The notes beneath the pieces are model-generated. The model had not been told where the DNA came from. It did not search any database and was given only the letters and a program-made list of their open reading frames with translations. From a virus (lineage: Duplodnaviria > Heunggongvirae > Uroviricota > Caudoviricetes), in the IMG/VR virus record IMGVR_UViG_2636415673_000006: DNA of 44,007 nucleotides; one strand, 5' to 3'. The position numbers were made by a program, and so were the translations under genes. How positions within the stretch are numbered: the first letter of the stretch is position 1; each line of letters opens with the position of its first letter. This document shows positions 11,165 through 19,712 of this stretch, piece by piece.

Positions 11165-11231
11165 TGAAACAGGTGAGTTGAGTTCAAACTGTAGTACAAT
11201 TCTCTCCAGTTTGAACAGGAAAGAATATGCT

Positions 11232-11564
11232 ATGAACCCTTATATTTATCTTGGTGGTGCAATACTTGCAGAGGTCATTGGTACAACCTTAATGAAGTTT
11301 TCAGAAGGTTTTACACGGTTATGGCCATCTGTTGGTACAATTATTTGTTATTGTGCATCATTCTGGTTATTAGCTCAGACGCTGGCTTATATTCCTACAG
11401 GGATTGCTTATGCTATCTGGTCAGGAGTCGGTATTGTCCTGATTAGCTTACTGTCATGGGGACTTTTCGGCCAACGGCTGGACCTGCCAGCCATTATAGG
11501 CATGATGTTGATTTGTGCCGGTGTGTTGGTTATTAATTTATTGTCACGAAGCACACCACATTAA
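11232..11564 (+). CDS. emrE: SMR-family multidrug efflux transporter EmrE
   Basis: 110-aa four-TM protein MNPYIYLGGAILAEVIGTTLMKFSEGFTRLW... recognised as E. coli EmrE. Start set at the internal ATG; the track ORF begins at 11178. Confidence 0.9.
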   Translation: MNPYIYLGGAILAEVIGTTLMKFSEGFTRLWPSVGTIICYCASFWLLAQTLAYIPTGIAYAIWSGVGIVLISLLSWGLFGQRLDLPAIIGMMLICAGVLVINLLSRSTPH

Positions 11565-11594
11565 AATAATTTGTTTCTAAACGACTAAAATATG

Positions 11595-11635
11595 GAGGCT
11601 CTTATATTTATATGAGCCTCGTTTTATGCTTTTTG
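11595..11635 (+). terminator. Rho-independent terminator after emrE
   Basis: gaggctc-ttatatttatat-gagcctc followed by gttttatgcttttt. Confidence 0.45.
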
Positions 11636-11818
11636 TTAATGTCTTTATTTTTTATGTATTCTTTTGTGCTTTCAAGATTATGGCGTAAGAAAATTGCAAT
11701 ACGATTATTGTTGTATATTCAAGATAATGTGACCTTAATTGTCTTTTTAAATAAAAATTAAACAAAAATTATATCCCACCACTAAGGTTTATAAAAGCAT
11801 ACGTTAGCAGGTGTCACC

Positions 11819-13345
11819 ATGAAAAAAGCCATAGCATATATGCGATTTTCATCACCAGGTCAGATATCTGGTGACTCATTAAACCGACAGAGAAGACTTA
11901 TTGCTGAATGGTTAAAGGTAAATAGTGATTATTATCTTGATACCATAACATATGAAGATTTAGGATTAAGTGCATTCAAAGGAAAGCATGCACAATCAGG
12001 AGCTTTTTCGGAATTTTTAGATGCTATAGAGCATGGTTATATATTGCCAGGAACTACATTGTTAGTTGAAAGTCTGGACAGACTTTCAAGAGAAAAAGTC
12101 GGTGAAGCGATTGAACGTCTGAAATTGATTTTGAATCACGGTATTGATGTTATAACTCTTTGCGACAATACAGTCTATAATATTGACTCTTTGAATGAGC
12201 CATATTCATTAATAAAAGCCATACTTATAGCACAAAGGGCAAATGAAGAAAGCGAGATAAAGTCAAGTCGGGTTAAATTATCATGGAAGAAAAAACGGCA
12301 GGATGCACTGGAATCAGGTACGATTATGACGGCGTCTTGTCCGAGATGGCTCTCATTGGATGACAAAAGAACGGCTTTTGTTCCAGACCCCGACAGGGTG
12401 AAAACTATTGAGCTAATTTTTAAACTCAGGATGGAAAGGCGCTCATTGAATGCAATAGCCAAGTATTTAAATGATCATGCTGTAAAGAATTTCTCAGGAA
12501 AAGAAAGTGCATGGGGACCTTCTGTAATTGAAAAATTATTAGCGAATAAAGCTCTGATAGGTATATGCGTACCTTCATATCGTGCAAGAGGGAAAGGGAT
12601 AAGTGAAATCGCTGGCTATTATCCCAGAGTCATATCAGATGATTTGTTTTACGCTGTACAGGAAATTCGGTTGGCACCTTTTGGTATTAGCAATAGTAGC
12701 AAGAATCCTATGCTAATAAATCTACTTCGAACAGTTATGAAGTGTGAGGCTTGTGGTAATACCATGATTGTTCATGCGGTATCTGGAAGTTTGCATGGCT
12801 ATTATGTTTGTCCGATGAGAAGATTACATCGATGTGACAGGCCATCAATAAAAAGAGATTTGGTTGATTATAATATCATTAATGAATTGCTTTTTAATTG
12901 TAGCAAAATTCAACCAGTTGAAAACAAGAAAGATGCTAATGAAACTTTAGAGTTAAAAATTATTGAGCTTCAGATGAAAATTAATAATTTAATTGCTGCA
13001 TTATCTGTTGCGCCTGAAGTTACCGCTATAGCAGAAAAAATCAGAGTATTAGATAAGGAATTACGAAGGGCTTCTGTATCATTAAAAACTTTGAAGAGTA
13101 AAGCGGTGAGCTCACTTGGTGATTTTCATGCTATTGACTTAACCAGTAAAAATGGGCGAGAGCTATGTCGTACACTTGCCTATAAAACATTCGAAAAAAT
13201 CATAATCAATACAGATAATAAAACCTGTGATATCTATTTTATGAATGGCATTGTTTTTAAACACTATCCTTTAATGAAAACAATATCCGCCCAGCAGGCG
13301 ATAAGTACTCTCAAATATATGGTTGATGGTGAGGTTTATTTTTGA
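11819..13345 (+). CDS. ybcK: Large serine recombinase (resolvase/invertase N-domain + recombinase domain + zinc ribbon), YbcK-like
   Basis: 508-aa ORF; N-terminal serine-recombinase motif (AIAYMRFSSPGQ...SLDRLSRE) and C-terminal Cys cluster (CEACGNTM...YYVCPMRRLHRC); AT-rich gene. Confidence 0.8.
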   Translation: MKKAIAYMRFSSPGQISGDSLNRQRRLIAEWLKVNSDYYLDTITYEDLGLSAFKGKHAQSGAFSEFLDAIEHGYILPGTTLLVESLDRLSREKVGEAIERLKLILNHGIDVITLCDNTVYNIDSLNEPYSLIKAILIAQRANEESEIKSSRVKLSWKKKRQDALESGTIMTASCPRWLSLDDKRTAFVPDPDRVKTIELIFKLRMERRSLNAIAKYLNDHAVKNFSGKESAWGPSVIEKLLANKALIGICVPSYRARGKGISEIAGYYPRVISDDLFYAVQEIRLAPFGISNSSKNPMLINLLRTVMKCEACGNTMIVHAVSGSLHGYYVCPMRRLHRCDRPSIKRDLVDYNIINELLFNCSKIQPVENKKDANETLELKIIELQMKINNLIAALSVAPEVTAIAEKIRVLDKELRRASVSLKTLKSKAVSSLGDFHAIDLTSKNGRELCRTLAYKTFEKIIINTDNKTCDIYFMNGIVFKHYPLMKTISAQQAISTLKYMVDGEVYF

Positions 13346-13456: not shown

Positions 13457-13780
13457 ATGGATGCTGGCGTTCTCGTTCTAGCAGTTCAACAATCCCCAAT
13501 CACAAAACAATTCACTGATAACGAACTTTGCACACTCGCCTGGTTATGGCGAGCAGGGAATGTGATGTTAATTGCCTACCAGAACGTTACTCATCTTCTT
13601 CAGGATGCGGAGCATGGTGAAGCTGGTCACTTCACTTCCATCGAGCAAGAATATCCCCAGATACTCAACAGAGCGCGAGCAATCCTCGTCCGAGAAACGG
13701 CACATGTAAAACTTCAGCCGTGGCAGGATGATAAGTGGAGTCGAGTATTGCCGCATTTACCTCAGAATCTGTTTCAATAA
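13457..13780 (+). CDS. Hypothetical protein
   Basis: 107-aa ORF in the nin-region cargo; followed by a 10-bp perfect inverted repeat (cttccgtcat/atgacggaag) at 13799-13826. Confidence 0.4.
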   Translation: MDAGVLVLAVQQSPITKQFTDNELCTLAWLWRAGNVMLIAYQNVTHLLQDAEHGEAGHFTSIEQEYPQILNRARAILVRETAHVKLQPWQDDKWSRVLPHLPQNLFQ

Positions 13781-13954
13781 AGGCGCTAGTTAGTAAGGCT
13801 TCCGTCATTCTGCGATGACGGAAGTGCGGGCTGCGTACGGGAGAGCAATTGCATGAATAATATAAATATTCCGCTCACTCCATATAGCGATTTCTGATAC
13901 AAACTTATCTATTGTGGTAAAATTATAGAAACAAACTTATAGCGTACTAACCAT

Positions 13955-14737
13955 ATGGACAATATTAATAAACACGGGCTCTCAAGAAGAATACCTGAGA
14001 CAATAAAACGTCAGATAAGGCAAAGGTGCGGCTTTGGCTGTGTAATTTGTGGATTTGGATTTTATGATTATGAGCATTTTAAACCTGACTTCGTTGATGC
14101 CAAAGTACATGATCCGAATGGAATGACACTTCTTTGCTCCCAATGCAATCAAAAAAGAGCTCGTGGTAGACTTTCAGCACAGACAGTGGAAATAGCTGAC
14201 AGAAATCCCAAGTGCTTACAGGCTGGTTTTGCAAATGAAATGTTTGATTTTCATAATGAGCCTATAACAGTAAAATTTGCAGGAGTGACGTTTCATAACT
14301 GTCAAAATTTGATTGTAGTCAATGAACAACCCATTCTTTCTGTGAAACCTTCACCCATACCACATGGACCGATGCTTTTATCAGGAATTTTCTGTAATTC
14401 TATTGGTAAGGAGACTTTACTGATAGATGAAAATGAATGGAAAGCTAAATCAGACAATTGGGATGTGGAGTGTACCGGCCCGCGTATAACAATACGACGT
14501 GGGCCAGGAGAGTTTGCCCTCGTTCTAAAAATGGAACCTCCAACAGGATTGATTGTTGAGCGTCTTGATATGTTGTATGAAGGGGTCAGGATGAAAGGAG
14601 ATAAAGATCTGCTGGAAGTTTCGATTAATGGAGGTCCCTTGCACAGATGGCAATCATGCTCAATGTCAAATTGCCATACAGGGCTTGCGATTCAGGGCGG
14701 TATTAGAGCTGCTAATGATCCTTTGTATTGCGCCTAA
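13955..14737 (+). CDS. HNH-nuclease-domain protein with uncharacterised C-terminal domain
   Basis: 260-aa ORF; N-terminal HNH-like zinc-finger block (CGFGCVICG...YDYEH...NGMTLLCSQCNQKRARG); about 180 aa of unrecognised sequence follows. Confidence 0.55.
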   Translation: MDNINKHGLSRRIPETIKRQIRQRCGFGCVICGFGFYDYEHFKPDFVDAKVHDPNGMTLLCSQCNQKRARGRLSAQTVEIADRNPKCLQAGFANEMFDFHNEPITVKFAGVTFHNCQNLIVVNEQPILSVKPSPIPHGPMLLSGIFCNSIGKETLLIDENEWKAKSDNWDVECTGPRITIRRGPGEFALVLKMEPPTGLIVERLDMLYEGVRMKGDKDLLEVSINGGPLHRWQSCSMSNCHTGLAIQGGIRAANDPLYCA

Positions 14738-14929
14738 ATCCACTAAATTGATTTTCAACAATCAACTTGCCATAATTAAGTCACCGGAGTTTGAACTCCT
14801 CCGGTGACTTCTGCGCTAAACGGGGACGTTTATGCGCACATACAATCCAACCTCTCTTCTCCATTCTCAGATGCAGAAATGCACCTGCGATATTTTGCAT
14901 CCAGCGTTTGATCTCTGCGGAGGTGAAGC

Positions 14930-15385
14930 GTGAACCTCCCACAAGATGGTATCAAATTGCATCGCGGTAACTTCACCGCTATCGGTCGGCAGATCCAGCC
15001 TTATCTGGAGGACGGCAAATGCTTTCGCATGGTGCTTAAACCGTGGCGCGAGAGACGCAGTCTTTCCCAGAATGCACTCAGCCACATGTGGTACAGCGAA
15101 ATCAGTGAATACCTCATCAGCAAGGGTAAAACGTTCGCCACTCCAGCTTGGGTAAAAGATGCTCTCAAACACACATATCTCGGTTATGAAACCAAAGACC
15201 TGGTTGATGTCGTAACCGGTGATATCACCACTATCCAGTCGTTACGCCATACCTCCGATCTTGATACCGGAGAGATGTATGTCTTCCTGTGTAAGGTTGA
15301 AGCCTGGGCGGTGAATATTGGCTGCCACCTGACTATTCCGCAGAGCTGCGAGTTCCAGCTGCTCCGCGACAAGCAGGAGGCGTAA
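14930..15385 (+). CDS. ninB: NinB/Orf-family recombination protein (YbcN-like)
   Basis: 151-aa ORF with the NinB-type motif [17 protein letters not shown]; stop overlaps the ninE start (TAATG). Confidence 0.65.
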
Positions 15386-16952: not shown

Positions 16953-17477
16953 TTATTGTTTAACCCATAATAATTCATTGACATTGAATCCCAACTTTTG
17001 AGCGGTTCGCACATAGTCTGCTTTTACTTTATCTGGAATAGTTGGGGTCCTTGCCAGAATCCATAGGTATTCTCTGTTCGGACCACTGACAAGAGCATAC
17101 TTATACTCATCATCCAGTTTGATTACATTATAGCCACCATAGAAGGGGCCAAAAAACGAAACCTTCAACGCTGCAGTTTTAGTATCTCCAGTAAAGTATG
17201 CTTTACCTTCGCTCTCGCTCCATTTATTTTTCGTTGGATCGTATCCACGGTTAAGTACACGAATCCCTCCGTCGTTCCGTTTTCCATAGGTAGCGCTGAC
17301 CTGTTCCAGACCACGTTCGAACCGGTTCTCGAGGCGAGCTATTTCATACCATTTTCCGAGGTAGCGGTTGGCGTCAAAATTTGTAATCGGCTGCACACCT
17401 TTAGGTGGTGTCGGGGCCTTACATGCTATAAGAGTGAAAGAGAGTGCAATGCCAGTCAACACAGGCCATAACTTCAT
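16953..17477 (-). CDS. blc: Bacterial lipocalin Blc-like outer-membrane lipoprotein
   Basis: 174-aa ORF with lipobox (LIAC) and lipocalin signature (NFDANRYLGKWYEIARLENRFERG ... YLWILARTP), strongly resembling E. coli Blc. Confidence 0.85.
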   Translation of the reverse strand: MKLWPVLTGIALSFTLIACKAPTPPKGVQPITNFDANRYLGKWYEIARLENRFERGLEQVSATYGKRNDGGIRVLNRGYDPTKNKWSESEGKAYFTGDTKTAALKVSFFGPFYGGYNVIKLDDEYKYALVSGPNREYLWILARTPTIPDKVKADYVRTAQKLGFNVNELLWVKQ

Positions 17478-17669
17478 AATAAATCCTGTACTTTTGATAG
17501 TTGAGAGTAAGTATGAAAGATAGATGATTACGACCGATCACTTAAAGAACTTTCATACTATATTAGGAATAGTCTATAACAGAAAAATTGTCAGTGATGA
17601 CGCCAGAAAGGCAATTTATTCCGTGCACTACACAGTTTATGTGTTAATGAATTAGTCAAGGGGGAGAAT

Positions 17670-18629
17670 ATGATAAAAAAACCTGTGATTGGAATCAGCG
17701 GTTGTTTGGCCGGCTCTGCTGTTCGTTTTGATGGTGGTCACAAAAGAGCTGACTTTTTAATGGACAAATTAGTGGAATGGGTAACATTCAGACCAGTATG
17801 TCCGGAAATGGCTATAGGGCTGCCAGTTCCGCGTCCTGCTCTACGTCTTGTGCGCTCGACGCAAGGAAATATACGGATGTGTTTCAGCCACGACCAGAAT
17901 GAGGATGTGACAGAGAGAATGACAGAGTTTAGTCGTTCTTATATGGACAAATTAAAGGATGTATCGGGGTTTGTGGTTTGTGCTAAATCTCCCAGCTGTG
18001 GCATGGAGCGCGTGCGTGTCTATGATGAAAATGGTAATCGAGGTCGTAAAGATGGAGTGGGACTATTTACGAGCACTTTGATGGAAAAGTTTTCCTGGCT
18101 ACCGGTTGAAGAGGATGGGCGATTACATGATCCAGTGCTTCGTGAGAATTTTGTTGAAAGAGTTTTTGCTTTGCATGAGCTCAATCACCTTTACAAGGAG
18201 AAATTATCAAGAAGAGAGTTATTAGCTTTTCATAGTCGTTATAAGCTTCAGTTGTTGGCGCATAGTCAGGCAGGCTATAAAGATATGGGACCATTTGTGG
18301 CTGCAATACACGAGTGGGCGGACCTTGAATCATACTTTGAGGTGTATCGTGATAAGCTGATGGCGATTCTCAGAAAACCTGCATCACGTAAAAATCACAC
18401 GAATGTGCTGATGCATATACAGGGGTATTTTAGTAACTACTTAAGTACACGCCAGCGTAAAGAGTTGAGCGAGGTTATACTTAACTATCGTTCTGGCACA
18501 TTACCTCTTCTTGCGCCGTTGACTCTGCTGAAGCATTATCTGGGTGAGTATCCTAATGATTACTTGCTTACACAGAATTACTTCGCTCCCTATCCGGACG
18601 AACTGGCTCTAAGACTGATGGTAAATTAA
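17670..18629 (+). CDS. YbgA-like protein (DUF523/DUF1722 family)
   Basis: 319-aa ORF; N-terminus PVIGISGCLAGSAVRFDGGHK and domain organisation resemble E. coli YbgA; RBS GGGGGAG before the ATG. Confidence 0.6.
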   Translation: MIKKPVIGISGCLAGSAVRFDGGHKRADFLMDKLVEWVTFRPVCPEMAIGLPVPRPALRLVRSTQGNIRMCFSHDQNEDVTERMTEFSRSYMDKLKDVSGFVVCAKSPSCGMERVRVYDENGNRGRKDGVGLFTSTLMEKFSWLPVEEDGRLHDPVLRENFVERVFALHELNHLYKEKLSRRELLAFHSRYKLQLLAHSQAGYKDMGPFVAAIHEWADLESYFEVYRDKLMAILRKPASRKNHTNVLMHIQGYFSNYLSTRQRKELSEVILNYRSGTLPLLAPLTLLKHYLGEYPNDYLLTQNYFAPYPDELALRLMVN

Positions 18630-18971
18630 TTGTATGCGATATCATCCAAAAGGATGAGTTCCTGCATGCAAGATATTTACAATCGTAAAAACTACACTAT
18701 GATACCCAGAGTGTCAGTTTGTATAAAAACTCTGTTTACGCTGAAGAAACCATTGAGATGCAACTTAAAGTTGGTAAACATGCCAGTCAAAATATATAAT
18801 ATTATGATTCCACGCAGCTATATATAATATAACAGATTGGTTTAATAATTTGTCTTTGTGAGTTAAATACATAATTTTATACTTGTGATGCAATGAGATT
18901 TTCCTTATTGTTGAACTGGCGAATATTGATTTTCCACCTATACTTACCTGGTGTAACCCCAATGATATCAG

Positions 18972-19712
18972 GTGGATAATATGCCATACATATGTTCTAT
19001 CATTTTGGTGTTGAACTCGTTTGATGTCCGAATTGGTAAAGAAGATATTTTGTTTAAAAAAGGAAGTGCTGTTCTCATTGATTACAATTTAAAAGATTTT
19101 TTTTCATCAAATATAGATCATGTAATGATCGTAGATGTTGAAGAGAAAACAGTTAATGATTTCTTTAAAAGCAACACACTCTCACCTTTTTCTGTAAGAA
19201 GGTTTTATCCGGCATACTTGATGGTGGAATGTGAAGATTTTTCATTGTTAAAGAACTTGATTGCATGCTTGAATTGTGATGGCAGAACTGTGGATTTTGT
19301 TAGAAATCAAATATCACTTGCATGTCTTGCTATCTTATCTTCAGAGAAAATAGTGCAAAGTTTTTTATTTGGATGTCTTAATAGTTTAGGAAGTAAAGTT
19401 AAGGCTATTATTCACACGGATATATCTGCAGCATGGAGACTTTGTGATATATCTTCAAGACTGTATCTGAGTGAAAGTCTGTTAAAAAGAAAATTAAAGC
19501 ACGAAGGCTTATCATTTAGTAAGTTAATTCTTGAAGAGCGAATGGTGATGGCGGAAAGGTTATTAAGCTACAATTTATATTCTGTTGGAAAAGTTGCTGA
19601 GATATGCGGTTATGAAAACACGTCATATTTTGTAAGTGTTTTCAGAAGATATTTTGGTGTTCCTCCCCATCAATATTCATCAAGACTTTTTTTAGAAAAA
19701 GACATGATGTAA
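18972..19712 (+). CDS. AraC/XylS-family transcriptional regulator (AppY/EnvY/YbcM-like)
   Basis: 246-aa ORF with C-terminal AraC HTH (VGKVAEICGYENTSYFVSVFRRYFGVPPHQY); very AT-rich gene. Confidence 0.8.
   Translation: MDNMPYICSIILVLNSFDVRIGKEDILFKKGSAVLIDYNLKDFFSSNIDHVMIVDVEEKTVNDFFKSNTLSPFSVRRFYPAYLMVECEDFSLLKNLIACLNCDGRTVDFVRNQISLACLAILSSEKIVQSFLFGCLNSLGSKVKAIIHTDISAAWRLCDISSRLYLSESLLKRKLKHEGLSFSKLILEERMVMAERLLSYNLYSVGKVAEICGYENTSYFVSVFRRYFGVPPHQYSSRLFLEKDMM

Follow-up and report, generated by a model that had tools for sequence, protein, structure and literature searches.

Why would a temperate phage carry, as the whole cargo of a variable slot, a gene for a nameless protein with a nuclease motif at one end and nothing recognisable at the other? 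This question is raised by a single gene in IMG/VR virus record IMGVR_UViG_2636415673_000006 (Duplodnaviria; Heunggongvirae; Uroviricota; Caudoviricetes), a stretch of 44,007 nucleotides that we analysed as a whole and refer to as the window; it represents a DLP12-like lambdoid prophage integrated at a tRNA-Arg gene. The gene encodes a protein of 260 residues in which an HNH domain is followed by a domain built of beta strands. Candidates for defence nucleases encoded by one gene have become frequent. The answer towards which we tentatively incline is that this gene is a self-contained, horizontally mobile cargo of temperate phages that provides a standalone defence nuclease gated by its own beta domain.

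The open reading frame (ORF) listing of the window contains an ATG-to-stop frame of exactly 260 codons at positions 13955..14737 (plus strand), precisely where the original prediction, made from the nucleotide sequence without database searches, had placed a 260-residue protein. In a nucleotide comparison, the region of about 1 kb around this ORF was 100% identical to the DNA of Escherichia coli strain 1517k, in which the RefSeq coding sequence for the same ORF is WP_001348590.1, labelled "hypothetical protein". The identical protein is present on at least 1000 contigs, without a name on any of them, and a scan of the PHROGs families showed that it matches phrog_6544 ("unknown function") over its full length (1.8e-141). 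Since a search at E ≤ 1e-3 yielded 305 full-length homologues, and 1,479 sequence clusters match the C-terminal domain alone, the frame is not a chance ORF; it is a real and conserved gene. A literature search returned no paper that mentions WP_001348590, and the publications retrieved on HNH proteins deal with packaging-associated HNH proteins or with other systems. The gene and the parts of its product are placed in the window as follows:

13955..14737, plus strand: coding sequence of the 260-residue HNH and beta-domain protein, an ORF from ATG to stop (WP_001348590.1; phrog_6544)
13955..14230, plus strand: residues 1-92, the predicted basic HNH (His-Me finger) nuclease domain
14027-14158, plus strand: Cys/His core of this domain, residues 25-68, with the C29/C32 and C61/C64 zinc knuckles, H41, H52 and N65
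14240..14704, plus strand: residues 96-250, an acidic, all-beta domain with 17 predicted strands and no known relative; N160, W169-D170 and G175 are conserved
14705..14734, plus strand: residues 251-260, a disordered tail with the clade-conserved motif A-A-N-D-P-x-Y (predicted local distance difference test score, pLDDT, below 50 at residues 255-260)

The N-terminal HNH domain

The N-terminal Cys/His motif of HNH type on which the original prediction rested is indeed present, and it reads C25, C29-x2-C32, Y-E-H41, H52 and C61-x2-C64-N65. In an alignment of 45 full-length homologues, the residues R22, R24, C25, C29, C32, E40, H41, H52, C61, C64, N65 and Q66 are invariant or nearly so. H41, the metal-ligand position 65 and the paired CxxC knuckles are those of the HNH/His-Me finger nucleases, and the predicted beta-beta-alpha-metal fold is that of the HNH superfamily. 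This fold was obtained from a full-length AlphaFold2 model that was built on the alignment of the 45 homologous sequences (pLDDT 83; predicted template modelling score, pTM, 0.70). The N-terminal part of the model superposes on solved HNH domains, including those of IscB and Cas9; further structural matches of this domain are EcoKMcrA, TagI, VcaM4I, ScoMcrA and ZRANB3, and the best structural match over the full length is Cap5. A profile of residues 1-92 matched the HNH domain of IscB at E=0.0077, and the alignment brought H41 to the His-His position of IscB and C61xxC64 to its CxxCH knuckle.

Scores against the general HNH models are low. The Pfam family HNH (PF01844) aligns with residues 29-68 at E=0.041 and 14.5 bits, which lies under its gathering cut-off of 21.4 bits, and the HNH families of PHROGs gave weak matches, the best at 4.8e-4. 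The Pfam threshold is passed by at least one distant relative of the same architecture (P0206, 25.0 bits), and 15 of 100 relatives match this model at E ≤ 1e-3. Judged by its predicted fold, its motif and its conservation in the family, the segment formed by residues 1-92 is a genuine HNH domain despite the sub-threshold Pfam score, and it is by this fold and motif that the protein belongs to the HNH superfamily.

Some of the motif positions vary with distance. The second Cys pair is swapped for H-H in some distant relatives, and at position 65, an invariant Asn in the clade of the 260-residue protein, the wider family mostly has His (CxxCH). H-N-N variants, with His replaced by Asn at the metal-ligand position, are active in other HNH enzymes. 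Since this replacement occurs in active enzymes, nuclease catalysis by the 260-residue protein is plausible from its sequence.

The acidic beta domain and its family

The original prediction had found no recognisable signature in the rest of the protein, put there at about 180 residues, and our searches left that statement standing for the roughly 170 residues that follow the HNH domain. No model of Pfam, NCBIfam or PADLOC covers the beta domain. When this domain was compared alone with solved structures, no fold match was obtained, and a Foldseek search against predicted viral structures returned nothing below E=0.1. Sequence searches of the PDB with the single sequence, a full-length profile and a C-terminal profile gave chance matches only (e.g., HIV gp160 at E=0.05-0.5). 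The beta domain is thus without a known relative in the models and structures searched; a publication search on it came back empty, with a coverage that did not extend to the study of E. coli prophage defences by Brenes & Laub 2025.

Residues 90-260 were also modelled separately, which gave a pLDDT of 88.6 and a pTM of 0.81 for a structure with 17 beta strands and zero helices. In the full-length model, disorder is confined to the linker at residues 93-95 and to the last six residues of the protein. The tail motif A-A-N-D-P-x-Y is kept in the proteobacterial clade. Judged from their sequences, this tail and the SEC-C tails that some relatives carry look like short tails for interaction or regulation.

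We searched 1.84 billion representative sequences, clustered at 50% identity, with a profile of the beta domain and recovered 1,479 clusters at E ≤ 1e-3, 759 of them at E ≤ 1e-10. Among the best 150 matches listed, the beta domain starts at about residue 90, after the HNH motif, in nearly all full-length matches, and no case was found among these in which it is joined to a different effector. In 100 diverse members, N160 is invariant, and the conservation of H41, H52, C29, C32, C61, P139, W169, D170 and G175 reaches 90% or more. Some members are extended at their C-terminus by a SEC-C zinc motif (15 of the 100; the sequence CPCGSGxKYKxCCG marks this tail in about 15% of the wider family), by TPR repeats, by a CxxCxxCC domain or by other additions, and they reach total lengths of up to 672 residues. 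Modular conflict proteins typically show such variable additions at the C-terminus. When each species was scanned through one genome, 221 relatives were identified, which are distributed over the Proteobacteria, Cyanobacteria, Planctomycetes, Chloroflexi, Acidobacteria, Bacillota, Deinococcus, Verrucomicrobia and Chlamydiae and include one in a metagenome-assembled genome of Methanothrix. By these profile searches, the two-domain architecture is that of a large unnamed family across many bacterial phyla, and its sporadic distribution over them is the pattern expected from horizontal transfer.

The two domains differ sharply in charge. In the protein encoded by the window, the HNH domain is basic (net charge +6, isoelectric point [pI] 9.2) and the beta domain is acidic (net charge -5, pI 5.5; family mean pI 5.0-5.6). 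This split between an HNH domain with a pI of about 9 and a beta domain with a pI of about 5 holds throughout the family, which argues that the beta domain is not a DNA-binding module.

The charge split bears directly on the possibility that the protein acts in the manner of McrA from prophage e14, i.e., as a Type IV-like, modification-dependent restriction nuclease that would be constitutively active and directed by its second domain to foreign DNA carrying modified bases. Like EcoKMcrA and other Type IV enzymes with an HNH domain (PDB entries 6ghc, 6ghs, 6yex and 5zmm), the 260-residue protein is a solitary HNH nuclease candidate borne by a prophage or island, possesses one extra domain, and has no methylase, immunity or other partner gene. 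The structural matches of its HNH domain include EcoKMcrA, TagI, VcaM4I and ScoMcrA, the modelled HNH domain superposes on those of such enzymes at 2.4-3.0 Å, and a homologue in Alcaligenes adjoins a Type IV restriction endonuclease-like protein. An acidic pI of about 5 throughout the family would, however, be unusual for a DNA-binding module, and the order of the domains is the reverse of that in McrA-type enzymes, whose HNH domain is C-terminal and not N-terminal. Furthermore, the beta domain has no fold similarity to the SRA, PUA or McrA-N readers of modified bases, and the mREase_IV models of PADLOC do not match the 260-residue protein. It thus does not appear to belong to the known Type IV enzymes, although a reader of a new type is conceivable, and we consider a mode of action of this type unlikely.

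An exchange slot in DLP12-like prophages

To the left of the gene, the prophage carries, in this order, exo-bet-gam, a gene for a cI-like repressor, O, P, ren, emrE, ybcK and a remnant of 107 codons with a P22AR-C domain; to its right follow a 33-codon ORF, ybcN/ninB, ninE, ybcO, rusA, ylcG and Q. Comparisons with four DLP12-like prophages delimited a cassette between these flanks, of which the gene for the 260-residue protein is the whole cargo. On the right, homology restarts exactly at position 14748 in all four comparisons; on the left, it stops between 13630 and 13831. The gene has a GC content of 41%, compared to 49% for the window and 51-55% for the neighbouring phage genes, and the cassette differs in the same sense from the phage backbone (38-43% versus 50-55%). 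The view of the original prediction that this is an accessory gene of a prophage is therefore well founded. The features of the slot are:

13832..14747, plus strand: variable cargo cassette, consisting of a promoter-like region and a single gene (blastn against four DLP12-like prophages; GC content)
13894..13923, plus strand: sigma-70 promoter-like site, CTGATA-18-TAAAAT with a TG extended -10, located 31 bp upstream of the ATG (consensus scan)
13457..13780, plus strand: left flank, P22 antirepressor-like remnant of 107 residues (P22AR C-terminal domain; Pfam P22_AR_C, 1.1e-13; RefSeq)
14778..14810, plus strand: right flank, hairpin with a 12-bp stem in the conserved backbone, 41 nucleotides after the stop codon (RNA fold)

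Other prophages hold other cargo at this position; in strain K-12 it is ybcL/ybcM, and four further strains have the following:

Strain GPEC1366: a 309-residue protein that PADLOC identifies as BstA (3.6e-121)
Strain 9000 (O157-type): a HEPN protein (Pfam HEPN; PADLOC candidate PDC-M28A, 1.8e-7) together with a 133-residue partner
Strain O104:H4 C227-11: a 169-residue hypothetical protein
Strain AVS0285: an alpha/beta hydrolase, encoded in the opposite orientation

The gene of the window is hence allelic with BstA and with a HEPN pair in one and the same slot, a hotspot location of the kind by which defence genes are generally sought. P2/P4 elements and other prophage hotspots are documented reservoirs of defence genes, and uncharacterised genes in prophage hotspots often prove to be defences (PMC9122126; PMC9519451). 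BstA itself has been demonstrated by experiment to be a prophage-encoded abortive-infection protein (PMC8585504). The resemblance between BstA and the 260-residue protein lies in the exact same slot of a DLP12-like prophage with the same flanks, and in the format of single-gene prophage cargo coding for a two-domain protein (about 300 residues in the case of BstA). There is no sequence similarity between them, the PADLOC model of BstA misses the 260-residue protein, and BstA possesses a KilA-N-like DNA-binding domain and no nuclease motif, so that the 260-residue protein is not a member of the BstA family. BstA reportedly also carries a self-immunity DNA element, termed anti-BstA (aba).

The gene is part of the early-right operon, where it follows the replication genes, precedes ninB/ybcN-ninE-ybcO-rusA and has the same orientation as these. 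This position raises a different possibility, namely that it encodes a nuclease of phage or host DNA metabolism that serves lytic growth in recombination, repair or fork processing, similar to NinG/Rap or RusA. A weak PHROG match to NinG/Rap and the presence of the HNH protein ZRANB3 among the fold and sequence matches would be in keeping with such a role. The distribution of the gene in E. coli speaks against it: the flank with ybcN and the nin genes is found in about 2,960 of 5,426 complete genomes and the gene itself in only about 80, which implies that this type of prophage can do without it. Unrelated cargo replaces the gene in the same slot, homologues are found outside prophages or on the opposite strand within them, and this prophage already encodes RusA. 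Lambda NinG/Rap and the terminase-associated HNH proteins of the HK97 gp74 type are HNH-type nucleases of lambdoid phages as well, and NinG is located in the same nin region. The match to NinG/Rap is, however, insignificant (E=0.44), and the gene of the window is dispensable cargo and not a core gene. It does not adjoin terminase genes as those of the gp74 type do, and its product has 260 residues including an extra domain; packaging HNH proteins have about 100-120 residues. A packaging or NinG/Rap-type role was rejected on the grounds of position, dispensability and lack of similarity, and we regard a function in DNA metabolism at large as improbable.

A solitary HNH gene on mobile elements, with a patchy distribution, a low GC content, a promoter-like site of its own and sharply defined insertion junctions, could also be a selfish, free-standing homing endonuclease, which would cut cognate phage or plasmid genomes that lack it and spread into them through recombinational repair, with the C-terminal domain serving for target recognition. 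Virulent phages commonly encode homing endonucleases of the free-standing HNH type. A tblastn search of 50,697 sequenced phage genomes recovered a homologue in only one, a temperate phage of Klebsiella, and a megablast search of phage genomes with the gene gave no match. The positions of the homologues are unrelated to one another: some follow replication genes, others belong to an early-left operon, lie at the end of a prophage or have chromosomal housekeeping genes beside them, and no one conserved target gene adjoins them. Many unrelated cargos are exchanged at the same junction in the DLP12-like prophages, which indicates the shuffling of modules and not homing. Given in addition that NUMOD, IENR and helix-turn-helix modules were absent in a Pfam scan and that the C-terminal domain is acidic, homing appears as improbable an explanation as a role in DNA metabolism.

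The promoter-like site lies inside the cargo cassette and would thus travel with the gene; from its sequence, we suppose that it may drive expression of the gene in the lysogen. The hairpin, by contrast, lies to the right of the junction at 14748 and belongs to the conserved backbone that is common to all cargo variants. The region around it (14735-14835) is predicted to fold with -29.3 kcal/mol (z = -4.6). The hairpin lacks a T-run and might possibly act as a terminator upstream of ybcN/ninB; a second copy was sought in the window, and none is present. The P22AR-C remnant on the left is common to the BstA- and O104-type variants and is part of the backbone or of a neighbouring module, outside the gene. 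We also considered whether the cassette hides an RNA partner or an array of repeats, and rejected this: the cassette gave no Rfam match, and its only repeat is a trivial two-copy tandem repeat of 14 nucleotides inside the coding sequence (TRF score 42).

The slot shows further peculiarities in individual strains. In the DLP12-like prophage of GPEC1366, the full-length BstA homologue (locus L101, 2140-3066) occupies the slot of the nin region, a position that differs from that described for BstA in BTP1, downstream of the repressor. The HEPN and 133-residue pair of strain 9000, the PDC-M28A candidate, occupies the same nin-region slot (locus L099, 2121-2917). Just right of the cargo junction, the 33-codon ORF (14832-14933) overlaps the start of ybcN. 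In strain 9000, the segment that matches positions 14748-14933 of the window, with the hairpin and the start of this ORF, occurs twice (L099, 659-796 and 2981-3118; 86% identity over 138 bp), and the two copies bracket a module with P22AR and HEPN genes. The duplicated segment may serve as the junction where recombination exchanges cargo modules or stacks them.

Solitary homologues and a proposed gated nuclease

The surroundings of the homologues in other organisms were compared at 75 loci from different species. All-against-all clustering of the genes within four positions on either side detected no neighbour family in more than three loci, and no family of ORFs of 25-120 residues within 450 bp of either end was found in more than two. 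A conserved partner gene or small antitoxin was therefore rejected; the lack of any widely recurrent neighbour or small ORF indicates that the gene has no partner of its own that would supply immunity, an antitoxin, an ATPase or a signal synthase.

Elsewhere, homologues travel as lone cargo on prophages, plasmids and small islands. The homologue of Enterobacter (75% identical) lies in a Rac-like prophage directly after O/P and is followed by other cargo, including a RES-domain protein; the homologue of Klebsiella (60%) is located in a prophage between replication and methylase genes and the late genes, and that of Pseudomonas in the early region of a prophage on the strand opposite to both neighbours. 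In Undibacterium, the homologue adjoins an insertion sequence (IS) element and HicAB. The Paraburkholderia homologue is found at a prophage end next to a UvrA-like ABC ATPase of 1,987 residues (locus L015, 527-6490). In Alcaligenes, the homologue, likewise at a prophage end, is followed by the Type IV restriction endonuclease-like HNH protein mentioned above (245 residues; PADLOC mREase_IV, 3.5e-7) and by a DUF4238 protein. The HNH neighbour was considered as a tandem paralogue and rejected, since it is an unrelated protein. The three genes of Alcaligenes faecalis (locus L016, 7983-10338) have the appearance of a mini defence island; a DUF4238 protein is known to protect E. coli against T7 (PMC9122126). 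Homologues are present on seven plasmids. Distant homologues (33-39% identity, partial coverage) on the small plasmids NZ_LR890238.1 (3.7 kb, Klebsiella) and NZ_CP114270.1 (4.9 kb, Acinetobacter) fall in stretches without an annotated gene.

Among the 115 immediate neighbours at the 75 loci, a few are clear defence components: one enzyme of the DrmMI/type IIG kind, one SNF2 helicase similar to ZorD/DpdE, one S subunit of a type I system, one Type IV restriction endonuclease, two Schlafen-AlbA_2 proteins and one HEPN_LA2681 protein. Some of the other immediate neighbours are integrases or phage replication genes. This enrichment of defence genes is suggestive, modest and not decisive.

A solitary nuclease gene on mobile elements could equally be a toxin that is used for purposes other than phage defence, such as the addiction or stabilisation of an element or competition between bacteria; the HicAB genes next to the Undibacterium homologue and the occurrence on small plasmids would agree with this. 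Alternatively, the domain might be a catalytically dead, HNH-like zinc-finger regulator, for which one could cite the middle Asn of the classical H-N-H motif, which is not conserved, and the last His, which is Asn in this clade. Against a toxin stand the lack of a cognate immunity or antitoxin gene at the 75 loci and a Pfam scan, the scope of which did not include signal peptides, that detected no known secretion-associated domain. Against a dead domain stands the fact that over 1,400 clusters conserve H41, H52 and the residue position of the metal ligand, which argues for retained catalysis. We rate these possibilities, taken together, as very unlikely.

Of the characterised systems, Cap5, the HNH-SAVED effector of CBASS (PDB entries 7rwk, 7rwm and 8fm1), most resembles the 260-residue protein. 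Both are single-polypeptide proteins in which an N-terminal HNH effector domain is followed by a non-catalytic C-terminal domain, and in Cap5 the latter gates the nuclease. The C-terminal domain of the 260-residue protein is, however, predicted to be all-beta and not SAVED, and a search with this domain alone retrieves neither Cap5 nor SAVED/CARF proteins. Sequence similarity beyond the HNH core is not significant (E=0.2-1.7). In contrast to Cap5, the gene has no CD-NTase or other conserved partner nearby, which makes a cyclic-oligonucleotide signal unlikely. Lacking both SAVED and CD-NTase, the protein is not a member of the Cap5/CBASS group. PtuB of Septu and of Retron-Eco7 and ZorE of Zorya are likewise small HNH nucleases of defence systems, and they provided the only PADLOC matches, which are weak (PtuB at E=0.031 for the 260-residue protein; ZorE at about 1e-3 for one relative). 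These proteins are devoid of the beta domain and need adjacent partner ATPases or complexes, whereas no conserved neighbour exists here; without a partner gene and without a model match, the 260-residue protein is not a member of Septu or Zorya. In its way of working, it would by analogy be most like Cap5, with an HNH effector and a gating domain, and also like other single-chain defence nucleases.

How might such a gated nuclease operate? Because a probably active HNH nuclease travels alone, it must be kept harmless within its own polypeptide. The beta domain is the proposed gate since it is the only other part of the protein and is always present, always C-terminal and acidic, and gating as such is proposed because Cap5, which comes closest in structure over the full length, has its N-terminal HNH domain controlled by a sensor at the C-terminus. 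Sensing would be direct, given that no signal-generating partner is conserved. The protein would most likely act alone, as a nuclease directed against phages or other mobile elements. Its basic HNH domain would then be the DNA-cutting effector, with H41 as the general base, N65 as a metal ligand and the Cys4 zinc site as a scaffold. The acidic beta domain would serve as a regulatory or sensor module, not as a DNA reader, and would keep the nuclease quiet in the lysogen. When this domain meets a component of an incoming phage, or a consequence of its arrival, the nuclease would be set free or switched on and would destroy the DNA of the invader, and possibly that of the cell as well, and thereby protect the lysogen population and the resident prophage. 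The outcome would be either abortive infection or the selective destruction of invader DNA.

Several findings weigh against a gated defence nuclease. A known defence family for the whole protein had to be rejected: an NCBIfam scan of all 260 residues gave zero matches, and PADLOC returned PtuB alone, over just 57 residues. Neither the accession WP_001348590 nor the sequence motifs of the protein are present in the supplementary tables of DefensePredictor. The deviations from the classical motif cited above for a dead domain, i.e., the middle Asn, in whose stead G56 is invariant, and the final Asn, count here as well, and no obvious Shine-Dalgarno sequence precedes the ATG. The association with known defence genes is modest, with at least four strongly matching proteins among the 115 immediate neighbours, most of which are housekeeping genes. 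Since the slot of the DLP12-like prophages also takes cargo without a defence signature (the alpha/beta hydrolase, the 169-residue hypothetical protein and, in K-12, ybcL/ybcM), the location alone does not prove defence. Finally, the nuclease activity of the HNH domain and a defence phenotype of the protein are both presumed, and that the beta domain acts as a sensor or gate is suggested by no more than charge, architecture and analogy. The proposal of a candidate defence effector that accompanied the original prediction has accordingly gained circumstantial support, from BstA and HEPN genes in the slot and from the occurrence of the gene as solitary cargo elsewhere, while the protein fits no known defence family and shares its slot with cargo of other appearance; abortive infection in particular would be one conceivable outcome.

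A further-reaching version, which we consider possible and put forward with greater reserve, is that the protein would be the first E. coli representative of a large, unnamed family of immune nucleases that spans phyla and works with a single protein. In this family, an acidic all-beta fold of a kind not seen before would directly sense a phage-derived molecule and unleash the fused HNH domain, as in Cap5 yet with no second messenger. Its gene would reside in a so far undescribed defence hotspot of lambdoid prophages, bounded by the replication genes and ninB, where cassettes with BstA or HEPN genes are found as well. If true, this would add a compact (260 residues), partner-free defence nuclease with a new sensor fold, and with it a family of more than 1,000 sequence clusters, none of which is recognised by current tools for finding defence systems. 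The exchange slot with its right junction at 14748 could be mined for defences in DLP12/lambda-like prophages, as the P2/P4 hotspots were. The hypothesis is cheap to test because the protein is small, soluble-looking and single-chain and offers, in H41, an obvious target for a catalytic knockout. Should defence prove to be the wrong reading, the gene would be one more uncharacterised prophage moron.

Two further regions of the window hold accessory genes. Upstream of the slot, a second cargo block in the early-right operon (11178-13345) has a GC content of 30-40% and contains emrE, encoding an SMR efflux pump, and ybcK, encoding a large serine recombinase of 508 residues with Resolvase, Recombinase and Zn_ribbon_recom domains. 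Another moron region (16953-19712) follows immediately on the gene for the Q antiterminator, at the usual place of late-operon cargo; it comprises a reverse-strand gene of the lipocalin family, a gene of the YbgA family and the gene for an AraC-type regulator, the last of which is disrupted by an IS element in strain 1517k.

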